DNA of 64,000 nt, from IMG/VR virus record IMGVR_UViG_3300032335_001059, positions 22,814 through 86,813 of that record; one strand, given 5' to 3'. Made by a program: the position numbers and the translations under genes. This DNA is from a virus. Its lineage: Duplodnaviria > Caudoviricetes. Numbering within the stretch: the first letter of the stretch is position 1; every line of letters starts with the position of its first letter. The notes under the pieces were generated by a model that saw only the letters and a list, made by a program, of their open reading frames with translations, made no database searches and was not told the origin of the DNA. Of this stretch, positions 14,830 to 24,929 are shown in pieces.

Positions 14830-15752
14830 TAAGAGTTTAGCTCTGGGTAAATTGGGTTAATTCGGTGAAAGTCCATCAATAATTATAGACATTTTGTAAA
14901 AAAATGTACTATACTTGTAAGGATAATACCGAGCCAAGTTATAATTTAAATAATTATAAAAGGTGTAGAGACTAGGTATTGAAACTATTTAAAAATAGAA
15001 TATAATATACCCACGAAATCCCAATATTAAAATGTATAAAAAAGAAGAATGGAAACCTATTTTAGGTTTTAACAATTATTTAGCTAGTAATTTAGGAAGA
15101 ATTAAAACAAAAACTGGAAAAATTTTAAAAGGATATGACCAAAATGGTTATAAAATTGTTAAAATAACAAACAACTTAAATAAAAGAAAAACAATAGGTG
15201 TACATAGACTTATTGCTTTAGCTTTTTTACCAAATCCTAATAATTTACCAAGTGTTAATCATATTAATAAAGTAAGAAATGATAACACTATTGAAAATTT
15301 AGAATGGATGTCTGTAAAAGACAATAATGTTCATTCTAAAAAAAGAAAAAAAACTTCTTTTCAAGCAAATTCAGTATTTTATGAACGAGATTTAAAACTT
15401 ATTCATTTAATGCTTGAATATAATATTCCAAGAGAGCTTATAGAAAAAATATATCAAATTGAACGCAACACACTTACTAATTTATTTAATGATAAAACAT
15501 ATAAAGAAGATTGTGTCAAACTTGATTTAAATTTTAATAAATTTTCTAAAAAAAGAACAGCTAAAACAATTGAAGAACATAAACAAGAAATTAAACAATT
15601 ATTGCAACAAAATTATAGTTGTCGCAGTATTGCTAAAAAATTTAATGTTTCTCATTCGTCAATAATAAATTTTAATAAAGATATAGTCCGAACTACAGTA
15701 AATGATAAATCTGTAGAGCTAAAAGATAAAGAGCTTTTAGGTTAACAAATTG
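14830..15752 (+). mobile_element. Group I intron in the annealase gene
   Basis: P1 cagggt/gctctg ending in a U.G pair; P10 ggact/agttt; core aattcggtgaaa, aataccgagccaag, gtagagacta (14965-14974), aagatatagtccg (15678-15690); ends in G. Confidence 0.9.
15032..15745 (+). CDS. Intron-encoded NUMOD4-HNH homing endonuclease with a C-terminal HTH
   Basis: EEWKPI..Y.ASNLGRIK; VHRLIALAF...VNHINKVRNDN..ENLEW; lies between the P7 strands. Confidence 0.92.
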   Translation: MYKKEEWKPILGFNNYLASNLGRIKTKTGKILKGYDQNGYKIVKITNNLNKRKTIGVHRLIALAFLPNPNNLPSVNHINKVRNDNTIENLEWMSVKDNNVHSKKRKKTSFQANSVFYERDLKLIHLMLEYNIPRELIEKIYQIERNTLTNLFNDKTYKEDCVKLDLNFNKFSKKRTAKTIEEHKQEIKQLLQQNYSCRSIAKKFNVSHSSIINFNKDIVRTTVNDKSVELKDKELLG

Positions 15753-16770: not shown

Positions 16771-17739
16771 ATGTATAGTATAAATGATAAACCTGAATAT
16801 TTAACTCCAAATTATTTATTAAGTAAAATATCACAAGAAGATATTTGGAAATACTATACTAATTTAACTCCAGATTCATCAAGTTTATATACAAATCCAT
16901 CAAGACATGATGTAAATGCAGGTTGTAAATTTTTTCAACAATCTGGTTATTGGTGGTTAACTGATTTTGCTAGAAAAAAAGTATATAATTGCTTCACTAT
17001 ACTTAAAGATATGTATAATATACCTTACCCGAAGGTACTAGAAATGGTATATGAAGATTTTTTAGGTAAAGGAAGCAATTATGTAAAATCAGATTACATA
17101 TATATACCGAAATTAATTAAAGAAGAAACATTAATTGATTGTAAACTTCAAAATTATACTAAACAAGATATTGATTATCTCAAATCCTTTCATCTAACCG
17201 CAAATATTTGCAAAAGACATAATGTCTATAGTGTAGCAGTATATTGGATTAATGGTAAACAAGTTTATAGTTATAAAAATAGTGACCCTTGTTTAGGATA
17301 TTTAGAAAATGGTAAATGGAAATTATATCATTATAAAAGAAAAGATTTCAGATTTGTGAGCAATATAAATTCTTCAATGTTGCAAGGTTTAGACCAACTT
17401 AGATACGAAAGTAATTTATTAATCATAACAAAAAGTAAAAAAGATGTTATGGTTTATGATTTATTAGGATATGAATCAGTTGCTCCACATTCTGAAGCTT
17501 TGTCTAAATGGGAAATGCATTTACCTCATTTACAAAACAATTACGACCAAATATTAATTAATTTTGACAATGATGAAGCTGGGTATATAGCTTCTGAATC
17601 TATAATTAATAAATATTCAAATTTGATTCCTTTATTTATTCCGATAGAATCAAATCAAAAAGATATTAGTGACTATATAAGGTCATATGGAATAAGTCAA
17701 ACAATAAATAATTTAAAAAAATGGCTAGAAAAATTGTAG
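16771..17739 (+). CDS. dnaG: DNA primase (DnaG-like TOPRIM)
   Basis: N-terminal YTNPSRHD..AGCKF; TOPRIM region LIITKSKKDVM, INFDNDEAG, KDISDY. Confidence 0.85.
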   Translation: MYSINDKPEYLTPNYLLSKISQEDIWKYYTNLTPDSSSLYTNPSRHDVNAGCKFFQQSGYWWLTDFARKKVYNCFTILKDMYNIPYPKVLEMVYEDFLGKGSNYVKSDYIYIPKLIKEETLIDCKLQNYTKQDIDYLKSFHLTANICKRHNVYSVAVYWINGKQVYSYKNSDPCLGYLENGKWKLYHYKRKDFRFVSNINSSMLQGLDQLRYESNLLIITKSKKDVMVYDLLGYESVAPHSEALSKWEMHLPHLQNNYDQILINFDNDEAGYIASESIINKYSNLIPLFIPIESNQKDISDYIRSYGISQTINNLKKWLEKL

Positions 17740-18125
17740 TTTTTTCAACAAAAACAAACACATCGCAAACTTTAATGTCAACTTCTTCAACATGGGGAGA
17801 ACTTAGAGCAGAAATTCCTTCATTGTTAAATGAAGATATGGTAGCTACTATTGTAGAAACTAGAAATCAATTAGTATCTATGGAAGCAATTCTTCCTGAA
17901 GGTGAATTTAAATTAGTTTTAACTCCTGCTAAAACTAAATCTGGTTCTGAATCTATTGATGTAGCTTCAGTAATTGCTTGTCTTAAAGAAAAATTTGATG
18001 AAGCTTTTGAAGATATCTTAAACGAAATCGAAGAAGGTGAGCATTCATCTACTTCACATCTTAGTTCATCTGATTTAAGTTTAGCAGCAGAAGCAGCTAA
18101 AATTAAAAGAGAATTAGGTCTGTAA
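17721..18125 (+). CDS. Putative ubiquitin-like (beta-grasp) protein precursor
   Basis: About 75-aa N-domain with a strand-strand-helix(TWGELRAEI)-strand pattern ending KLVLTPAKTKSG75, followed by an acidic helical tail; adjacent to E2-like, JAB and E1 genes. Confidence 0.65.
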   Translation: MARKIVVFSTKTNTSQTLMSTSSTWGELRAEIPSLLNEDMVATIVETRNQLVSMEAILPEGEFKLVLTPAKTKSGSESIDVASVIACLKEKFDEAFEDILNEIEEGEHSSTSHLSSSDLSLAAEAAKIKRELGL

Positions 18126-18133
18126 TTTTATTT

Positions 18134-18168
18134 AAAACTCTCTTGTTAATACAACAAGAGAGTTTTTT
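18134..18168 (+). terminator. Intrinsic terminator after the Ubl gene
   Basis: Perfect 14-bp aaaactctcttgtt/aacaagagagtttt plus T tract. Confidence 0.85.
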
Positions 18169-18185
18169 ATTTTTAAATTAAAAAA

Positions 18186-19490
18186 ATGAAAGCATTAATA
18201 ACTGGAATTACAGTAGGAAAATCTAGAAATGCATCTGCAACTTTAATATATAGAATATTTGATAAATATAAAGATTGTGATACTCATATAAATATTATAG
18301 ATGACCTAACTGATGGTAATTGGGCAATAGATAAAAGAGATGTTATATTTATAGAAGATGAAATTCCTAATATAGAATATAACTCTAAATGTTACATTTG
18401 TTCTGAAGAATACTTTAATGATGTTAGTGAAAAATTTTTACAAGATTTTACATTAAATTCTTATAACAAATTAGTAGGAAAAGAATACATTAGCGATGAA
18501 GATTTTTACATTAAATATTATAGTATTAAAAAAGATAATATTTTTGATTGGAAAAAAATAATTAAAGATTTTTTTGGAGATAGAGTAGATATACAAAATG
18601 AATATTTTATAGTACATTTTCCAAAAAAACATGTAGAAAATAGTTCAGGAAGACAACATACTATTTATGATGTATATTTAAAAATTACAATAAATTATTC
18701 AAATTCTTCTAGAATGTATTATGGACATTATTTTAATGAGTATTTTGATAAATATTTACAAAATTGTTATGCAAATCCTTGTTTTTTATTAACTAGTGGT
18801 ACAAGAACTACAGCATCTAAAGAAGAACATATTTCTTCATATTGTTTTTCTCATTTTCAAAGAGGATTTGGTGAATGGAGAAATACTTGTTTAGGCGAAG
18901 GATTGTTAAGAAAATATGGAAGTATTCCAATTTCTAATGAAGAACTTGCTGTAGGTTATTGTGTAGCTTTAGAAAATTATCTTTCTTGGGAATCTTTAGA
19001 AGGCGGACCTTATATTAAAATTAGTGATATTCGTTCTAATATTGAAAGAGAAAATTTAAATTCTTCTCTTTTTAGTTCAAGAATAATGAAAAGTTTAATA
19101 TCAAATAAATTTAACAATTTGATTTTAAATTTAGATACAAATAAAGTTTACATAAACGAAAATGTTCTAGATGAAGTTAATTCTTTTTATGCCATTAATG
19201 GAGATTATATTTCTTTAGACAAATTAAATCAAAATGATAAAAATAACAGTAATCATAAAGAAATTGTTGGAAATAACTTTTTTACTTTTAATGGAAAAGA
19301 AACTGGTAAATTAACAATTGATTATTCTTTAAATAAAAGTTCATCTGAAACAATTTTTTCTGGAGAATTAGATGTTTATAGAATGCATTATTCTTCTTTA
19401 GAACAATCTTTAACAAATAAAATAAATAGTATTATAAATGACAAATCAAACAACTTCCTTGAAAAAAAACCCTTATTCAGAATTAACTGA
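18186..19490 (+). CDS. Putative prokaryotic E2-like (UBC-fold) protein
   Basis: FSH223F-x(10)-TC235LGEG followed by a helix and YLSWESLEGGPY, resembling the His...CLG core of prokaryotic E2s; operon context. Confidence 0.5.
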   Translation: MKALITGITVGKSRNASATLIYRIFDKYKDCDTHINIIDDLTDGNWAIDKRDVIFIEDEIPNIEYNSKCYICSEEYFNDVSEKFLQDFTLNSYNKLVGKEYISDEDFYIKYYSIKKDNIFDWKKIIKDFFGDRVDIQNEYFIVHFPKKHVENSSGRQHTIYDVYLKITINYSNSSRMYYGHYFNEYFDKYLQNCYANPCFLLTSGTRTTASKEEHISSYCFSHFQRGFGEWRNTCLGEGLLRKYGSIPISNEELAVGYCVALENYLSWESLEGGPYIKISDIRSNIERENLNSSLFSSRIMKSLISNKFNNLILNLDTNKVYINENVLDEVNSFYAINGDYISLDKLNQNDKNNSNHKEIVGNNFFTFNGKETGKLTIDYSLNKSSSETIFSGELDVYRMHYSSLEQSLTNKINSIINDKSNNFLEKKPLFRIN

Positions 19491-19779
19491 GTTTTCTAAA
19501 AAGAAGGGTAAATTAATATTGAGTCAAACTGTAATTGACCAAATTAAATATTTATGTTCTAAAATGCCATTAGTAGAATGGTCAGGTGTATTATACCACA
19601 CTAGTGAAGGTGATTTACAAAATCCAGAACAATTTACATGTAAAGCTGAATATATATTGCTATTAGATAAAGGCACTTCAGGTTATACAGAATATGATTT
19701 TTCTTCTCCTTCTTTTACAGAAGCTTTGATGGAAAAACCAGAGTTTATGGAATGGTCTATGAGCCATTGTCACTCGCAT
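19438..19779 (+). CDS. JAB/MPN+ metallopeptidase, exon 1 (join 19438-19779, 20910-21749; 393 aa)
   Basis: VEWSGVL (catalytic Glu); splicing restores the JAMM motif HSH|NNMSVFFSATD. Confidence 0.88.
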
Positions 19780-19992
19780 TCGAGAAATTGTGGTGCAGCT
19801 ACAAAGTGATTTGTAGTAAAAAATAGAGGATGAATTGCTGGAACGATGACAAAGTAATCCAATCAGCAGCCAAGCTATAGTTACAACTATAGAAGGTTCA
19901 ACGACTACCTGAGCAGTATAGTCTGCTTAATAACAGGAAGTAGCTAATAGTAGTGTATTAGTGAAAAAGCGTCCTCCAACTTAACATGTCCG

Positions 19993-20853
19993 TTAAGTTG
20001 ATGATATAGTCTGTTCGTAGTTAATTCTTTGAAGAAAAACATTATGTTTTCTTTTTAAGAAAAAAGTTAAGTTATCGTAACAAGAATAGAAATTATAAAA
20101 ATCTTTTTTATTGCATATATCTAAAATATAATAATTACTTTTATTGGTAATTTTAAATTTTTCAAGTTTAAGCTCTTCGGCAATACCTTTTAAAAAAAGA
20201 TATGTTCCGCAAATGTTTATACCGTATGTTCTATAAAATTCATTTTTTACTCTTTTATCTGTATGGGCATAAACATGACCATCGCCATCAAAATATCCTA
20301 ATATTACAGCTTTTCTAAACTGTTTAGGTATTATTGGTAAAAAATTTTCAAGAGTAAAAGTTTTATTTCTATTAATACCAAGTGCAATTAAATTTCTACA
20401 AAGAGTTTGATTACCTAATGTTATTGATGACCTATTATAAGTTTTTTTAGTTCTTTTATCATAAGGTGTAGAATTTAATATTTTAGTTTCAAATCCAATT
20501 TCGGATTTAATAAAATTTAAAAAATCAACATCTTTGGTATTAACAACAATAGTTAGATTATATAATTTTTTTATTTTATCAAAACCGATACAACCATCAG
20601 CAGCTATATACCCCAATATATAAGCTTTTGAATATGTATCAATTTTTGAAAAATAATCAACATTACCTTGTGAAGGTCTTTTATTATTATAACCGCAATC
20701 TCTTTTGAGAATATAAGTTATAGTAGGATAAGGTTTTTGCATAATTTCAGCAATTTTTAAAACAGGAGTTTTGTTTAAATACAATTCTTTAATTTTTTCA
20801 ATTTGTTCTAATGATAATCTAGTTTTCATGTTTTTTCTTTTGTTATAACACAA
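19993..20853 (-). CDS. Antisense intron-encoded LAGLIDADG homing endonuclease (start probably 20829)
   Basis: Two motifs, AYILGYIAADGCI and AVILGYFDGDGHV; N-terminal HTH-like segment. Confidence 0.9.
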   Translation of the reverse strand: MCYNKRKNMKTRLSLEQIEKIKELYLNKTPVLKIAEIMQKPYPTITYILKRDCGYNNKRPSQGNVDYFSKIDTYSKAYILGYIAADGCIGFDKIKKLYNLTIVVNTKDVDFLNFIKSEIGFETKILNSTPYDKRTKKTYNRSSITLGNQTLCRNLIALGINRNKTFTLENFLPIIPKQFRKAVILGYFDGDGHVYAHTDKRVKNEFYRTYGINICGTYLFLKGIAEELKLEKFKITNKSNYYILDICNKKDFYNFYSCYDNLTFFLKRKHNVFLQRINYEQTISST

Positions 20854-20881
20854 AGGTAAGAATAAAACTTATAATAACAAA
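20851..20881 (-). promoter_or_regulatory. Bacteroidota promoter driving the antisense endonuclease
   Basis: On the minus strand: TTTG (20881-20878), 19-nt spacer, TACCTTTG (20858-20851), an exact match to TTTG-N19-TAnnTTTG. Confidence 0.78.
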
Positions 20882-20909
20882 TTTTCTTAATGTTTGCTAC
20901 GAGTAAACG

Positions 20910-21749
20910 AACAATATGAGCGTATTTTTTAGCGCGACTGACAATGAAGAACTTACAGATAATGCTCCTAATTACAACTACTACCTTTCGTTAATTGTAA
21001 ATAACAAAAATGAATATTGCGCTAGAATTGCATTCATTGGTGAAATTGAAGGTAGGACAATAAAATTTAAAGATAGACACGGAGTAGAGCAAGCAATAAC
21101 TTCAGCAAATAAACAAGTTACATTTTATTACGAAATGGAAATATTTGCTGAAAGTTCTAATTTAATTGATGATTTCTTTGTTAAGCAGTATGAAAAAGTA
21201 ATTGCAGCTAAACCAGTACAAACTTTTCCGCAATTTGAAAATAGTTATACAAATTATAACGTTACTAATTATGAAAATTATGGTATAGGTTATAATAAAA
21301 ATTATGCAAAAAATAATTACAAACAAGGTAAATTATTTGATGACAAAAGTACTGAAAAGATTGAAGATAAATTAACTTGGGATTCTCAAGCTGTAAACTT
21401 TATTAAAAGATTGATTGATGTAAATTATACTATGGAAAACATAGCATTTTATTTAAACTACAATCAAGATTATTCTTCTCCTTTACATAATTATTTAGAT
21501 GATTTGATTCCTAAAAACAAAGGACATTTCAAAAACAATAAAGAAGTTAAAGAATTTATTGAAAATAGAGTAGCTAATGCAGATGAAGTATTTGAATATT
21601 TTTCAATTACTTGTGATGAGTATGATAATACAAGTGATTTAAATGATGTATGGATAGATTCTATTAATTTTCTAAAAGCAAGTAGTTTTAAAAATCATCC
21701 AACATCAAAATTAATTATAGAAGAAATGGACAAATGGGTATGGAAATAA
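20910..21749 (+). CDS. JAB/MPN+ peptidase exon 2 with a long C-terminal extension
   Basis: NNMSVFFSATDNEEL...YYLSLIVNN continues the JAB fold. Confidence 0.88.
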   Translation, partial: NNMSVFFSATDNEELTDNAPNYNYYLSLIVNNKNEYCARIAFIGEIEGRTIKFKDRHGVEQAITSANKQVTFYYEMEIFAESSNLIDDFFVKQYEKVIAAKPVQTFPQFENSYTNYNVTNYENYGIGYNKNYAKNNYKQGKLFDDKSTEKIEDKLTWDSQAVNFIKRLIDVNYTMENIAFYLNYNQDYSSPLHNYLDDLIPKNKGHFKNNKEVKEFIENRVANADEVFEYFSITCDEYDNTSDLNDVWIDSINFLKASSFKNHPTSKLIIEEMDKWVWK

Positions 21750-21925
21750 AAAAAATTAAACAAAGTACAGTAAGATTTTCAGAAGCTTACTTTTATAAAC
21801 CAAATGTAGAAGTACTAGTATTAGGATTAGGGGGTATCGGCTCATGGCTGACCCTCAATCTTGCTAGATTAGAATGTAATTTACATTTATACGATTATGA
21901 TTTAATTGATGAAGTAAATTTAGCT
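21734..21925 (+). CDS. ThiF/E1-like adenylyltransferase, exon 1 (join 21734-21925, 23173-23664; 227 aa)
   Basis: VLVLGLGGIGSW (GxGxxG); YDYDLIDEVNLA|GQMY across the junction. Confidence 0.88.
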
Positions 21926-21935
21926 AGGAATATTC

Positions 21936-21978
21936 TATTATATTAATTATTTTTGTATATACAAAAAATAATATAATG
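21936..21978 (+). promoter_or_regulatory. TAnnTTTG element (21948-21955) inside a hairpin that pairs with the endonuclease ATG
   Basis: tattata...tttttgt/acaaaaa...tataatg stem; no clear -33 element. Confidence 0.5.
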
Positions 21979-23043
21979 GATAAATACTCAGGAGAATTTA
22001 AAACAATTGACACACAAGAAAAAGCTTATGTTTTAGGCTTGTTTTACGCAGATGGATATATTTATAAAAGAAAATATAGTTATTTTTCAGGAATTACTTT
22101 ACATTTAAAAGATGAATATTTAATAGATAAATTATGTGAAATTTTTTCTTTTTTTCAAAAAACTTTTGACAAAAGTAAACCTTCAACAATACATTTGAGA
22201 TGTAATGTAAAAGAATTTATTTTAGATTTAAAAGCAAACGGAATGCATGAAAGAAAATCTTTTGAAAACAAAGAGAATTTACATGTACCAAATATTGATA
22301 AATCTTTAATTAATCATTTTATTAGAGGATTTTTTGATGGAGATGGTAGTGTTTATTTTAGTAAAACTGCATCTATAAATTCTAAATATTGTACTTTTAC
22401 AGGAGTATGTTTTTCTTTTTTAAAAGAAATTCAGGAAATTTTAAAAACAAATAATATTAATTTTAGATTTACAATTAATAAACTTTCTAAAAAAGAATCT
22501 TACATTTTTGGAAGAAAAATTAATAATCCACAAGATGTTGGAATATTAACTTTATCTTTAAGAAAAGAAATTGAATTTTTTTCAAATTTTTTATATAAAA
22601 ATAGTAATATACATCTTTATAGAAAATATGAAATAATGAATTCTTGGACAGAAACTTTATCTGAAAGATTTATATGTAGAATATGTAATTCTAAAAATAC
22701 AATATTTGTAGGAAAAAATAAATATAAATGTAAAAATTGTAATAAAATAATTCCAATAATAGGTAATATTTTTGTTAAAAAAACAAGCAAGCCTTGTAAA
22801 CATTGTAATTCACTAAATACCGTAGGAAACGGTAAAACTAAAAGTAGAACTACAAATGAAATAATATCTGAAAAATTTTTGTGTAGAAATTGTAATAAAA
22901 ACTCCAGTTATTTAATGACTGGTCTTAATAACAGTAATGTTATTAATGGAGAGGATGAATTGACTGGAAAGCTAAGGGATGAAAGACTCCTATGCCAATC
23001 AGCAGCCAAGCCGTCAGAGACGGAAGGTTCAGAGACTACCTGA
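21976..23043 (+). CDS. Intron-encoded LAGLIDADG endonuclease with two C-terminal C4 zinc ribbons
   Basis: AYVLGLFYADGYI and HFIRGFFDGDGSV; CRIC..CKNC and CKHC..CRNC; ORF reads into the ribozyme core. Confidence 0.9.
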   Translation: MDKYSGEFKTIDTQEKAYVLGLFYADGYIYKRKYSYFSGITLHLKDEYLIDKLCEIFSFFQKTFDKSKPSTIHLRCNVKEFILDLKANGMHERKSFENKENLHVPNIDKSLINHFIRGFFDGDGSVYFSKTASINSKYCTFTGVCFSFLKEIQEILKTNNINFRFTINKLSKKESYIFGRKINNPQDVGILTLSLRKEIEFFSNFLYKNSNIHLYRKYEIMNSWTETLSERFICRICNSKNTIFVGKNKYKCKNCNKIIPIIGNIFVKKTSKPCKHCNSLNTVGNGKTKSRTTNEIISEKFLCRNCNKNSSYLMTGLNNSNVINGEDELTGKLRDERLLCQSAAKPSETEGSETT

Positions 23044-23172
23044 GTAATAGCGATATTACTTAATAACAGGAAGTAGTTATAATATATATTGAAGTTATAA
23101 TGAAAAAGTGTCCTCCATCCTTATAGGATGAAGATATAGTCCATGCCGCATAGAAATATGGGATAAACATTG

Positions 23173-23664
23173 GGTCAAATGTATGCTAATACTGATATTG
23201 GATTGAGAAAACTTGATAGTATTAATAGTTTAGTTAATTTATTATGTGATAAACCTAATATAATTTCTTTAAATGAAAAATATACTAATGAAAGTTTGAC
23301 TGGTCCAATAGTATTTTCTTGTTTTGACAATATGGCTGCAAGAAAATTAGCTTTTGATAAATGGAAAGCTGAAGACGATAGAGAACTTTTTATTGATGGA
23401 AGAATGGCACTTTCAACAGGAGAAGTTTATTGTGTAACAAAAGGAAAAGAAAAAGAATACGAAAGAACTTTATTTGATGATTCTGAAGTTGAAGATGCTG
23501 CTTGTAGTATGAAAGCAACTACTTTTAGTGGTATGACTATCGCAAGTATAATGACAGCATTATTTTGTAATTATGTAGGTACAACTTTAAATCCAGATTT
23601 ACCAGTTAATTTATCTTTTAAAACAACTTATAATTTTCCGTTAATGATGTTTGAAAGTATATGA
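23173..23664 (+). CDS. ThiF/E1-like exon 2
   Basis: IVFSCFDNMAARK, FIDGRM, candidate catalytic Cys in EDAACSMK; no Zn-binding CxxC pairs. Confidence 0.88.
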   Translation, partial: GQMYANTDIGLRKLDSINSLVNLLCDKPNIISLNEKYTNESLTGPIVFSCFDNMAARKLAFDKWKAEDDRELFIDGRMALSTGEVYCVTKGKEKEYERTLFDDSEVEDAACSMKATTFSGMTIASIMTALFCNYVGTTLNPDLPVNLSFKTTYNFPLMMFESI

Positions 23665-24929
23665 TAATTTTTAAAAACACAAGACGTTTTAATAATTCAC
23701 TTCCTGAAGTAGAAATAGATATAAGAAGTTTAAACATTATTCCTTTATTTGATATAATTGATGCTCCTTTTGGATTAATCAAATATGATTCAAATCCTAT
23801 ACTTTCTAAAAATAAAACTGCTAGTAGAATTTTACATAATAAAAATCTAATTTATAGATATTCTTATTCAGGTCAATTATTACATTATGATTATGAATAT
23901 TTAAAATCAAAGTATATAGATTTTAAAAAAAGAATAAAAAATGAAGTTTATTTCTTTTTTAATGAAAAAGTAAATTTTATTACTACTATCAATAATACTA
24001 ATATTCAATTTAATGAAAAAGTATTTATTAATACTGAATATATAACAAATAATTTTCAATTTAGAGGTAATAACCAATTTATAAAAAATACTTTTGATAA
24101 ATTTTCAACAAAAAAAGTAATTAGAAATAATGAAAAATTAGCTATTTATTTTGGTTCTGTTTTTAAAGAAGTCGATGAAGGTATATATCCTGTTTTACTA
24201 TCAGGTATTGATGCAAATAAAATAAATTCTTTTAAATCAAATTTAATAAATACTTTAGTAAATGAACCTACTGATTTTAATTCAGTTAAAGTTTATATAG
24301 ACAAAGATTGGTATTTAGATTCATGCAATAAATCTTTAAAAATATATTTGTTAAAAAATTTAGAAGAAAAATATTATAATTACGAACTTATATTGTTTGA
24401 CGGTAAAGAATTTGCTAATCAAAATATGTTTTCTTATCAACCTTTATCTTTTTCTACTCTTAGTAAGAGAAAAAAGTATTTTAATGATATTGAAGCTAAA
24501 CTTTATGAATTAATGCTAGATGATTATAAAGATAGTTTTGACTATAAAGCTGAACAAGAAAAGTTTTTAAATAAATACAATCAATTATTAGAAAATAATA
24601 GAAAAGAAAAACAAGATAAAGAAGAAAATAAATCTGAAATATTAGAAACTAGAAGTTTAACTTCAGAAGAAATGTCTTTAATTGATTCGTTATTTTATAA
24701 TAATGTAGAAGAGGAAATTGTTCCACGTGTAATTTCTACAGACATAATGAATGAAGCTATTGGTAATAGTATAGAATATCAAGAAGTACCTGTACTTAAT
24801 TTAATTCCAGTTTTACAAGAATTAAGTCCTACAAGTCAACTTCTTTCTACAATATCAGAAATAGATAATACATTTGCAGATTTAGAAGAAGAATTACGTA
24901 GAATAGCTAATGAAATACAAAATGGATAA
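23661..24929 (+). CDS. Hypothetical protein with an acidic tail, translationally coupled to E1
   Basis: 422 aa, ATGA overlap. Confidence 0.75.
   Translation: MIIFKNTRRFNNSLPEVEIDIRSLNIIPLFDIIDAPFGLIKYDSNPILSKNKTASRILHNKNLIYRYSYSGQLLHYDYEYLKSKYIDFKKRIKNEVYFFFNEKVNFITTINNTNIQFNEKVFINTEYITNNFQFRGNNQFIKNTFDKFSTKKVIRNNEKLAIYFGSVFKEVDEGIYPVLLSGIDANKINSFKSNLINTLVNEPTDFNSVKVYIDKDWYLDSCNKSLKIYLLKNLEEKYYNYELILFDGKEFANQNMFSYQPLSFSTLSKRKKYFNDIEAKLYELMLDDYKDSFDYKAEQEKFLNKYNQLLENNRKEKQDKEENKSEILETRSLTSEEMSLIDSLFYNNVEEEIVPRVISTDIMNEAIGNSIEYQEVPVLNLIPVLQELSPTSQLLSTISEIDNTFADLEEELRRIANEIQNG

Follow-up and report, generated by a model that had tools for sequence, protein, structure and literature searches.

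A candidate phage-encoded ubiquitin-like conjugation cassette, split by two introns, in crAss-like and related Bacteroidota phages

We describe four consecutive genes of a virus (Duplodnaviria; Caudoviricetes) that probably form a virus-encoded cassette for activation and conjugation of a ubiquitin-like protein (Ubl), and that recur immediately behind the primase gene in crAss-like phages and in related phages of Bacteroidota. They lie at 17721-23664 of the window, by which we mean the whole 64,000-nucleotide stretch analysed (bases 22814-86813 of the 86.8-kb virus record IMGVR_UViG_3300032335_001059, which is rated 99% complete), and encode a Ubl precursor, an E2-like protein, a JAB/JAMM peptidase and a ThiF-type E1. 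An original prediction, made from the sequence of this stretch, had proposed that the phage carries its own set of these proteins; gene content, gene order, predicted folds and motifs speak for that proposal, only moderately so for its E2-like part. What has been characterised of Ubl conjugation in prokaryotes to date is defence of bacteria against phages (Bil, Bub and type II CBASS). Here the whole kit belongs to the virus; if the reading is right, it would be the first Ubl conjugation system to belong to a virus of prokaryotes. Our literature searches turned up no account of the cassette; a UBA5-like protein family of gut phages receives brief mention in one 2026 preprint. The features of the locus, including the flanking open reading frames (ORFs), are as follows.

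16771-17739, plus strand: DNA primase gene, given for context (phrog_12622, E value 1.9e-30; Toprim_2)
17721-18125, plus strand: gene for the predicted Ubl precursor, 134 residues; predicted beta-grasp domain, residues 1-75, at 17721-17945
18134-18166, plus strand: terminator-like hairpin with a 14-bp stem and a T run, in the gap that separates the Ubl gene from those of the enzymes
18186-19490, plus strand: gene for the E2-like protein, 434 residues; UBC-type core at about residues 115-284, variable N- and C-terminal regions
19438-19779, plus strand: exon 1 of the predicted JAB/JAMM peptidase, 114 residues (phrog_21448, E value 1.4e-20), with the E-W-S-G glutamate and H-S-H
19780-20909, plus strand: predicted group I intron 1 (RF00028 core at 19793-20032, 66.7 bits, E value 4.2e-17)
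19993-20853, minus strand (antisense): LAGLIDADG homing endonuclease gene within intron 1 (PF14528, E value 2.8e-9; phrog_4645, E value 2.5e-41)
20910-21749, plus strand: exon 2 of the predicted JAB/JAMM peptidase (phrog_16107, E value 1e-11), starting N-N-M-S-V-F-F-S-A-T-D
21734-21925, plus strand: exon 1 of the ThiF-type E1 (PF00899, 37 bits, profile positions 20-65), with G-L-G-G-I-G and D-x-D
21926-23172, plus strand: predicted group I intron 2 (RF00028 core at 22930-23163, 72.2 bits, E value 8.7e-19)
21976-23043, plus strand (sense): LAGLIDADG homing endonuclease gene with a zinc-ribbon tail, within intron 2 (PF14528, E value 1e-9; phrog_4645, E value 8.6e-36)
23173-23664, plus strand: exon 2 of the E1, 163 residues (PF00899 positions 65-195; phrog_15670 positions 62-221), with F-D-N (Mg-site Asp) and A-A-C-S-M-K-A-T
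23661-24929, plus strand: downstream 422-residue ORF with no assigned family, overlapping the E1 stop by 4 nucleotides

Gene order and distribution

The ORF list of the window agrees with the four co-oriented, consecutive genes that the original prediction had placed at these coordinates. That prediction was also tied to synteny among relatives, and here the order is conserved: in 18 of the 18 related loci found through E1 exon 2, the primase, Ubl, E2-like, JAB and E1 genes follow one another in this order wherever the available flank suffices, down to 31% E1 identity, and recurrence over such a distance argues that the arrangement is more than chance. The same order appears in loci found independently through two distant E2-like proteins. 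In most related loci the primase gene is the immediate upstream neighbour of the Ubl gene, and the E2-like gene is never absent from the cassette.

The E1 is held by 74 phage records, among them crAss001, DAC15, the CrAssBcn phages, Kolpuevirus, Kehishuvirus and 29 Flavobacterium psychrophilum phages. The cassette is a fixed part of the replication module in a phage group of very large size, to which members of the most abundant human-gut phage order belong. In crAss001 the cassette consists of Gp79-Gp76 (Ubl Gp79, E2-like Gp78, JAB Gp77 and E1 Gp76), after the primase Gp80, and in Flavobacterium phage FpV4 it corresponds to gp53-gp50. Public labels hide it: Gp79 to Gp76 are annotated, in that order, as hypothetical, hypothetical, "metalloprotease domain" and "thiamine biosynthesis ThiF". 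As the cultured crAss001, DAC15, CrAssBcn phages and FpV4 all carry the cassette, its proposed activities are open to experiment.

The locus is compact. Genes of the locus overlap by 4-53 nucleotides (the primase gene and the start of the Ubl gene by 19), the exception within the cassette being a gap of 60 nucleotides between the Ubl and E2-like genes. The hairpin listed above falls in this gap, and strong hairpins of unrelated sequence, mostly followed by a U run, occupy the same place in 12 of 14 loci. A hairpin directly after the Ubl gene suggests that the Ubl is produced in excess over its enzymes.

The fixed position beside the primase and UDG genes suggests that the cassette acts early or in the replication phase, on proteins of the phage or of the host. 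This position also bears on whether the genes might instead be a counter-defence device, in which the phage Ubl or enzymes decoy or inhibit Bil or type II CBASS-like conjugation in the host, or the JAB strips host-made conjugates. Bil does tag phage proteins, type II CBASS does use E1-E2 and JAB chemistry (PMC11601596), and a phage JAB could reverse host marks. However, the joint conservation of all four activities, catalytic residues included, across thousands of divergent phages is more than a decoy would require. The kinship of the phage proteins to the defence families is remote, and the cassette is placed within the replication module instead of among accessory anti-defence genes. We therefore regard counter-defence as a distinctly improbable explanation and favour a cassette that conjugates a Ubl of the phage's own.

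Split JAB and E1 genes

As read from the DNA, each enzyme gene appears as two ORFs, the JAB at 19438-19809 and 20916-21749 and the ThiF protein at 21734-21946 and 23170-23664. The original prediction held that the JAMM motif and the ThiF adenylation region become intact only when 19780-20909 and 21926-23172 are removed, and comparison with relatives bears this out. Taking out the first insert yields H-S-H-N-N-M-S-V-F-F-S-A-T-D, which reads as HxH-x7-S-xx-D, and taking out the second joins DEVNLA in frame to GQ. In four close relatives (loci L002-L005, 75-97% identity) both genes are uninterrupted, and in tblastn comparisons the two exons of each pair abut to the base. The intron-less JAB alleles join at the point predicted here, the reading frame of the joined exons agreeing with that of L002 and L004; for E1, the joined exons have the bases of L002 at 60 of 60 positions. 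Across the two genes, the exons are 96-100% identical to intron-less alleles. The two halves of the ThiF protein also abut in family profiles, covering Pfam positions 20-65 and 65-195 and PHROG 15670 positions 1-61 and 62-221.

By their sequence features, both inserts are group I introns carrying homing endonuclease genes. Their RF00028 matches (66.7 bits at 19793-20032 and 72.2 bits at 22930-23163) stand above the gathering score of 50, and the blocks P, Q, R and S, conserved in group I introns, can be recognised by eye in both. These matches came from short sub-windows; Rfam at default filters, run on an 8-kb stretch and on the loci of five relatives, reported no introns. Both 5' exons end in U (19779 and 21925) and both introns end in G (20909 and 23172). 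Each intron carries a LAGLIDADG ORF in which PF14528 matches two stretches, as for two LAGLIDADG-type domains. Both introns have to be spliced from the transcript before the JAB and E1 frames can be read through. The fact that each enzyme gene is two ORFs in the DNA might instead be taken to mean that mobile-element insertions have inactivated both, leaving a decayed, non-functional cassette in this phage. Against such decay, both ribozyme cores are complete, score above the Rfam gathering threshold and have the correct U and G boundaries, and the exons, close in sequence to their intron-less counterparts, are intact and in frame once joined; we give decay next to no credence and take both genes to encode enzymes made from spliced messages. 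An intein in place of intron 2 was considered and rejected, since the endonuclease ORF is in another frame than E1 exon 1; a ribozyme core is also present. What is particular to the cassette in this phage is its two introns, of which one holds an endonuclease gene in antisense. For annotation they hold a lesson, as gene callers miss both enzymes where group I introns split genes inside conserved motifs.

The third gene was predicted to be a JAB peptidase, and the spliced product is, by its motif, a JAMM peptidase with the full set of residues: E47, H112, H114, S122 and D125 are invariant among 12 uninterrupted homologues. The Prok-JAB model (PF14464) matches five of five uninterrupted homologues, as top match in three and second in two, at E values of 3.4e-5 to 0.16 and 12.3-24.1 bits, just under the cut-off of 25; the separate exons of the window gave no Prok-JAB match. 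Compared with PDB sequence profiles, the family found no significant match, the nearest being a proteasome Rpn11-like chain at an E value of 0.38. Exon 2 continues into a C-terminal region of about 250 residues with no fold assigned.

The fourth gene was predicted to encode an E1, and family matches identify it as one of the ThiF type. Pfam ThiF scores 37 bits on exon 1 (cut-off 28.1) and 25.7 bits on exon 2 taken separately, and 70.4 bits on the uninterrupted L002 allele, which is 97% identical. A profile of the E1 family finds MccB, UBA5, MoeB and ThiF in the PDB at about 1e-11. Residues G31, G33, G36, D54, D56, K77, D116, C175 and K178 are invariant in the family, which places the glycine loop, the Mg-site Asp and the Cys among the conserved features. 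The spliced protein, of 227 residues, is a single ThiF adenylation domain, and by analogy with MoeB and ThiF it is probably a homodimer.

Several side observations concern the introns. The antisense LAGLIDADG ORF of intron 1 ends within the ribozyme core, and its last codons (19993-20032) coincide with the conserved S block and with 3' sequence of the RF00028 match; one piece of DNA thus serves the ribozyme and an ORF on the opposite strand. The exon bases flanking intron 1 (19750-19779 and 20910-20939) show clustered substitutions relative to the intron-less L002 and L004 alleles, while the exon 1 proteins are about 97% identical, a pattern consistent with co-conversion or with loss of the site that the endonuclease targets; at the E1 junction such substitutions are absent. 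Elsewhere, three loci (L013:6581-6899, L015:7755-8000 and L017:8226-8764) have ORF-less inserts in the E1 gene in which group I Q, R and S blocks are seen by eye, with Rfam silent at default filters. Two of these are at the same N-L-A/G-Q site as in the window and one lies 77 codons further on; the E1 gene is a repeated intron target. The intron cores at 19827-20000 and 22953-23144 are alike, and share 74-80% identity with segments of unrelated phages (crAss-like cr116_1 and Vibrio, Pseudoalteromonas and Shewanella phages), one of which lies under a terminase large-subunit annotation; this likeness indicates an intron lineage that moves widely among phages. Upstream of the replication genes, a 237-residue ORF at 15032-15745, judged by eye, resembles a free-standing homing endonuclease of the HNH type (H-R-L-I-A ... 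N-H-I-N ... N-L-E-W), and would raise the mobile endonuclease load of this genome.

Ubl precursor, E2-like protein and proposed pathway

The first gene had been read as encoding an N-terminal domain of about 75 residues ending in TKSG. Residues 72-75 are indeed T-K-S-G, and residues 1-75 are predicted to adopt the beta-grasp fold on which that reading depended. An AlphaFold2 model built from a 30-sequence alignment (predicted local distance difference test, pLDDT, 79) has the order strand-strand-helix-strand-strand, followed by a floppy stretch at 73-77 and two helices. The best Foldseek matches of the model are ubiquitin itself, at 18-21% identity, a probability of 1.0 and TM scores of about 0.6-0.7. 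In VIA-align, which aligned the model structurally to 48,161 representative PDB chains, all 50 of the best chains are ubiquitin-like domains, with Z of 7.6-9.3 and root-mean-square deviations (rmsd) of about 2 Å over residues 1-73.

Conservation is concentrated at the end of this domain. Among the 30 aligned sequences P59 and K73 are invariant and K71, S74 and G75 are at least 90% conserved (K-x-K-S/A-G); in a 12-sequence alignment G75 is invariant. The protein of the window reads K-T-K-S-G and then continues into an acidic, helical tail of 59 residues, and the tails of relatives range from one residue (L006 and L008) or three (L007) up to 156. A conserved Gly followed by a variable tail is, as a sequence pattern, that of a Ubl precursor.

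The same features bear on whether the genes might serve a sulfur-carrier pathway, in which a ThiS/MoaD-type carrier is adenylated by the E1 and then thiocarboxylated for a thio-modified nucleotide or cofactor. That would match the public label "thiamine biosynthesis protein" and the closeness of the E1 by sequence to MccB, UBA5, MoeB and ThiF, and MoaD is among the fold matches of the Ubl (Z of about 8). However, it is ubiquitin proper that heads the fold matches, the Ubl has Ser-Gly at its end and long tails that can be cleaved off, and the cassette invariably includes a JAMM peptidase and a UBC-like protein with a Cys. Domain searches of the cassette proteins and of the downstream ORF found no rhodanese, cysteine desulfurase, ThiG, ThiH or MoaE domain, nor do the annotations of four phage records show one next to the cassette. 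We consider sulfur transfer very improbable and read the first gene as that of a Ubl probably conjugated to proteins.

The tails themselves, which in the window occupy 17946-18122 and are highly variable among relatives, invite further comment. In the three loci in which the Ubl stops soon after K-S-G, a mostly acidic ORF of 41-49 residues fills the gap before the E2-like gene (L006:4644-4793, L007:4957-5082 and L008:5085-5225). Several tails have in common a patch of the form hydrophobic-x-D-hydrophobic-hydrophobic ... E, and many end in L-G plus one residue. Longer tails (L012, L013, L024, L019 and L020) share F-x-x-L-R-A-F ... H-F-G-K-N-x-T-Q-x-S-T-x-E-L, which by eye resembles a SAP/HeH-type helix-extended-helix motif. 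The tail may be a separate, sometimes fused module, by analogy with ubiquitin-ribosomal protein fusions.

For the second gene, the original prediction had proposed an E2-like protein with a core formed by H223 and C235-L-G. N152, H223, C235, G237, E269 and S270 are invariant among 73 diverse relatives of about 20% identity, drawn from a family of 3235 representatives (50%-identity clusters) at E values of 1e-3 or better. H223 belongs to an H-S-H motif, with C235-L-G 12 residues on, and both lie between a strand at 196-209 and a helix at 252-272. The AlphaFold2 model runs from a helix through four strands and a loop holding H223 and C235 to a long helix, which is the order of E2 enzymes; in these, the HPN motif and the catalytic Cys sit in the loop after strand 4. 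Support for the E2-like reading is moderate. In two VIA-align lists for the model, E2, UEV and RWD chains covering residues 115-284 dominate at Z of 4.3-6.6 and an rmsd of about 4 Å, the matches including UbcH5, Ubc13, UFC1, Atg3, a CBASS CdnG-E2 and the BubCD-BubB-BubA complex (9eav_D, Z of 4.5). As a lead only, an ESM Atlas search returned viral Prok-E2_D clusters at scores of 0.86-0.88. For residues 1-57 (18186-18356), which can be aligned in close relatives only, the model shows a small barrel, with an SH3-domain match at a Z of about 4 and an rmsd of 2.5 Å.

Several points must be set against reading the cassette as a working conjugation pathway. Its chemistry (cleavage, adenylation, thioester and conjugate) is inferred from sequence and models, and the splicing is likewise predicted. 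The E1 has no separate catalytic Cys domain, and in its residues 62-66 (21920-21925 and 23173-23178) an invariant Gly stands where MccB has the Arg of N-L-x-R-Q, the canonical motif of MoeB and ThiF. The Ubl ends in Ser-Gly rather than Gly-Gly. The E2 call is the weakest link: the overall model is weak, with a mean pLDDT of 59 (mostly 62-93 in the core blocks, at about 120-270), a Z of about 5 lies within the range in which the alignment tool warns that a match can reflect a common arrangement, and the protein has no Pfam, NCBIfam, PADLOC or PDB-sequence-profile match. Nor did Pfam find a shared family among the 73 relatives or Foldseek a meaningful PDB match to the whole 434-residue model; PF14460 has no match in the genome, and a search for shorter stand-alone relatives found none.

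A rival reading is that the system is E2-independent, like archaeal SAMP or Urm1-type systems or like Bub, with the 434-residue protein a non-catalytic UEV/RWD-like adaptor or an unrelated enzyme of the operon. No sequence family ties this protein to E2s, confidence in its model is modest, and in the fold search true E2s do no better than UEV and RWD domains. However, UEV and RWD domains are non-catalytic and lack the catalytic Cys, whereas Cys235 and His223 are invariant in relatives that otherwise share little, and both fall in the post-strand-4 loop in which E2s carry HPN and Cys; the gene is, moreover, always kept in the cassette. An E2-independent system is accordingly unlikely in our view, and we hold the assignment of the protein as an E2 to be fairly probable.

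If the cassette does conjugate a Ubl, the following course of events can be proposed. The Ubl would be synthesised as a precursor, in excess over the enzymes, and the JAMM peptidase would cleave after Gly75 and so remove the tail. The small E1, probably a homodimer, would then adenylate the exposed Gly75 using ATP, and may carry the Ubl on Cys175 before it is handed to Cys235 of the E2-like protein. No E3 is evident, and we therefore assign target choice to the variable N- and C-terminal regions of the E2-like protein, which would select the protein to be tagged. The same JAB may also undo the tagging. Whether all of this amounts to a complete, phage-owned ubiquitin-type tagging pathway, with a new and very divergent E2 branch, that modifies phage or host proteins of the replication phase is a proposition on which we find the scales evenly poised.

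Beyond the cassette, the 422-residue ORF is present only in close relatives (L001-L005); in other loci the fifth-gene position is held by a different, loosely related family, to which neither blastp nor profile searches link it. It found no family match and no ESM Atlas lead, and it could be a lineage-specific partner or target.

Comparison with known systems

The original prediction named Bil, Bub and PRTRC systems as analogies, and the cassette is a member of none of them. The closest in plan are the Bil (bacterial ISG15-like) anti-phage operons, which encode BilA (Ubl), BilB (E2), BilC (JAB) and BilD (E1) (PMC11601596). Like the phage cassette, they comprise four separate genes for Ubl, E2, JAB/JAMM and E1 with no E3, their Ubl needs a free C-terminal Gly and the E2 presumably picks the targets, a role proposed for Bil E2s (PMC11601596). 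The E1 sets the two apart, since that of Bil has tandem domains and a Cys domain (PMC11601596) and that of the phage, a single 227-residue ThiF domain, has neither, which is why we place the cassette outside Bil. Bil is, furthermore, a host defence, whereas the cassette is encoded by a virus within its replication module, and PADLOC defence models found nothing in it beyond weak Cap2 matches on the E1 nucleotide loop; NCBIfam models likewise matched only the E1, and weakly.

Bub (6E/DUF6527; Ye et al., PMC11601596) shares with the cassette a minimal, homodimer-type E1 without a separate Cys domain and a Ubl precursor released by a JAB. It is nonetheless built from Ubl-E2 and JAB-E1 fusions, with a DUF6527 serine protease (BubE), oxyester intermediates and an E1 lacking a catalytic Cys (PMC11601596), whereas the phage genes are separate and both the E1 and the E2-like protein have an invariant Cys. 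Pfam and PHROG scans found no DUF6527 match in any cassette protein or the downstream ORF. The fusions, the protease and the oxyester chemistry together exclude the cassette from Bub. PRTRC (ParB-related, ThiF-related cassette), found on plasmids and integrative and conjugative elements, resembles it in placing a small stand-alone ThiF-type E1 on a mobile element, and PRTRC_ThiF (TIGR03736) is the best NCBIfam match to E1 exon 2, at 16.6 bits against a cut-off of 144.75; the models of PRTRC proteins A-F match no cassette protein.

Among phages, the nearest parallel is the TAPI and TAPK pair of lambdoid and T1-like tail assembly (Iyer, Burroughs and Aravind 2006, PMC1779556), in which a phage beta-grasp protein likewise has a conserved C-terminal Gly followed by a further domain, with a JAB predicted to cut there. 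That pair lacks an E1 and an E2 and belongs to the tail module (PMC1779556), whereas the cassette has an E1 and an E2-like protein and a DNA replication setting. Eukaryotic ubiquitin precursors offer a last comparison. The phage Ubl differs from them in ending in Ser-Gly rather than Gly-Gly, in having a JAMM metalloprotease as its presumed processing enzyme and in an identity to ubiquitin of about 20%, seen in structural alignments only. Its basic residues at positions -2 and -4 from the Gly resemble R72 and R74 of ubiquitin. Like the ribosomal-protein fusions of ubiquitin and the extended forms of SUMO, NEDD8 and Atg8, it would be made with a variable C-terminal extension that is removed to expose the Gly.

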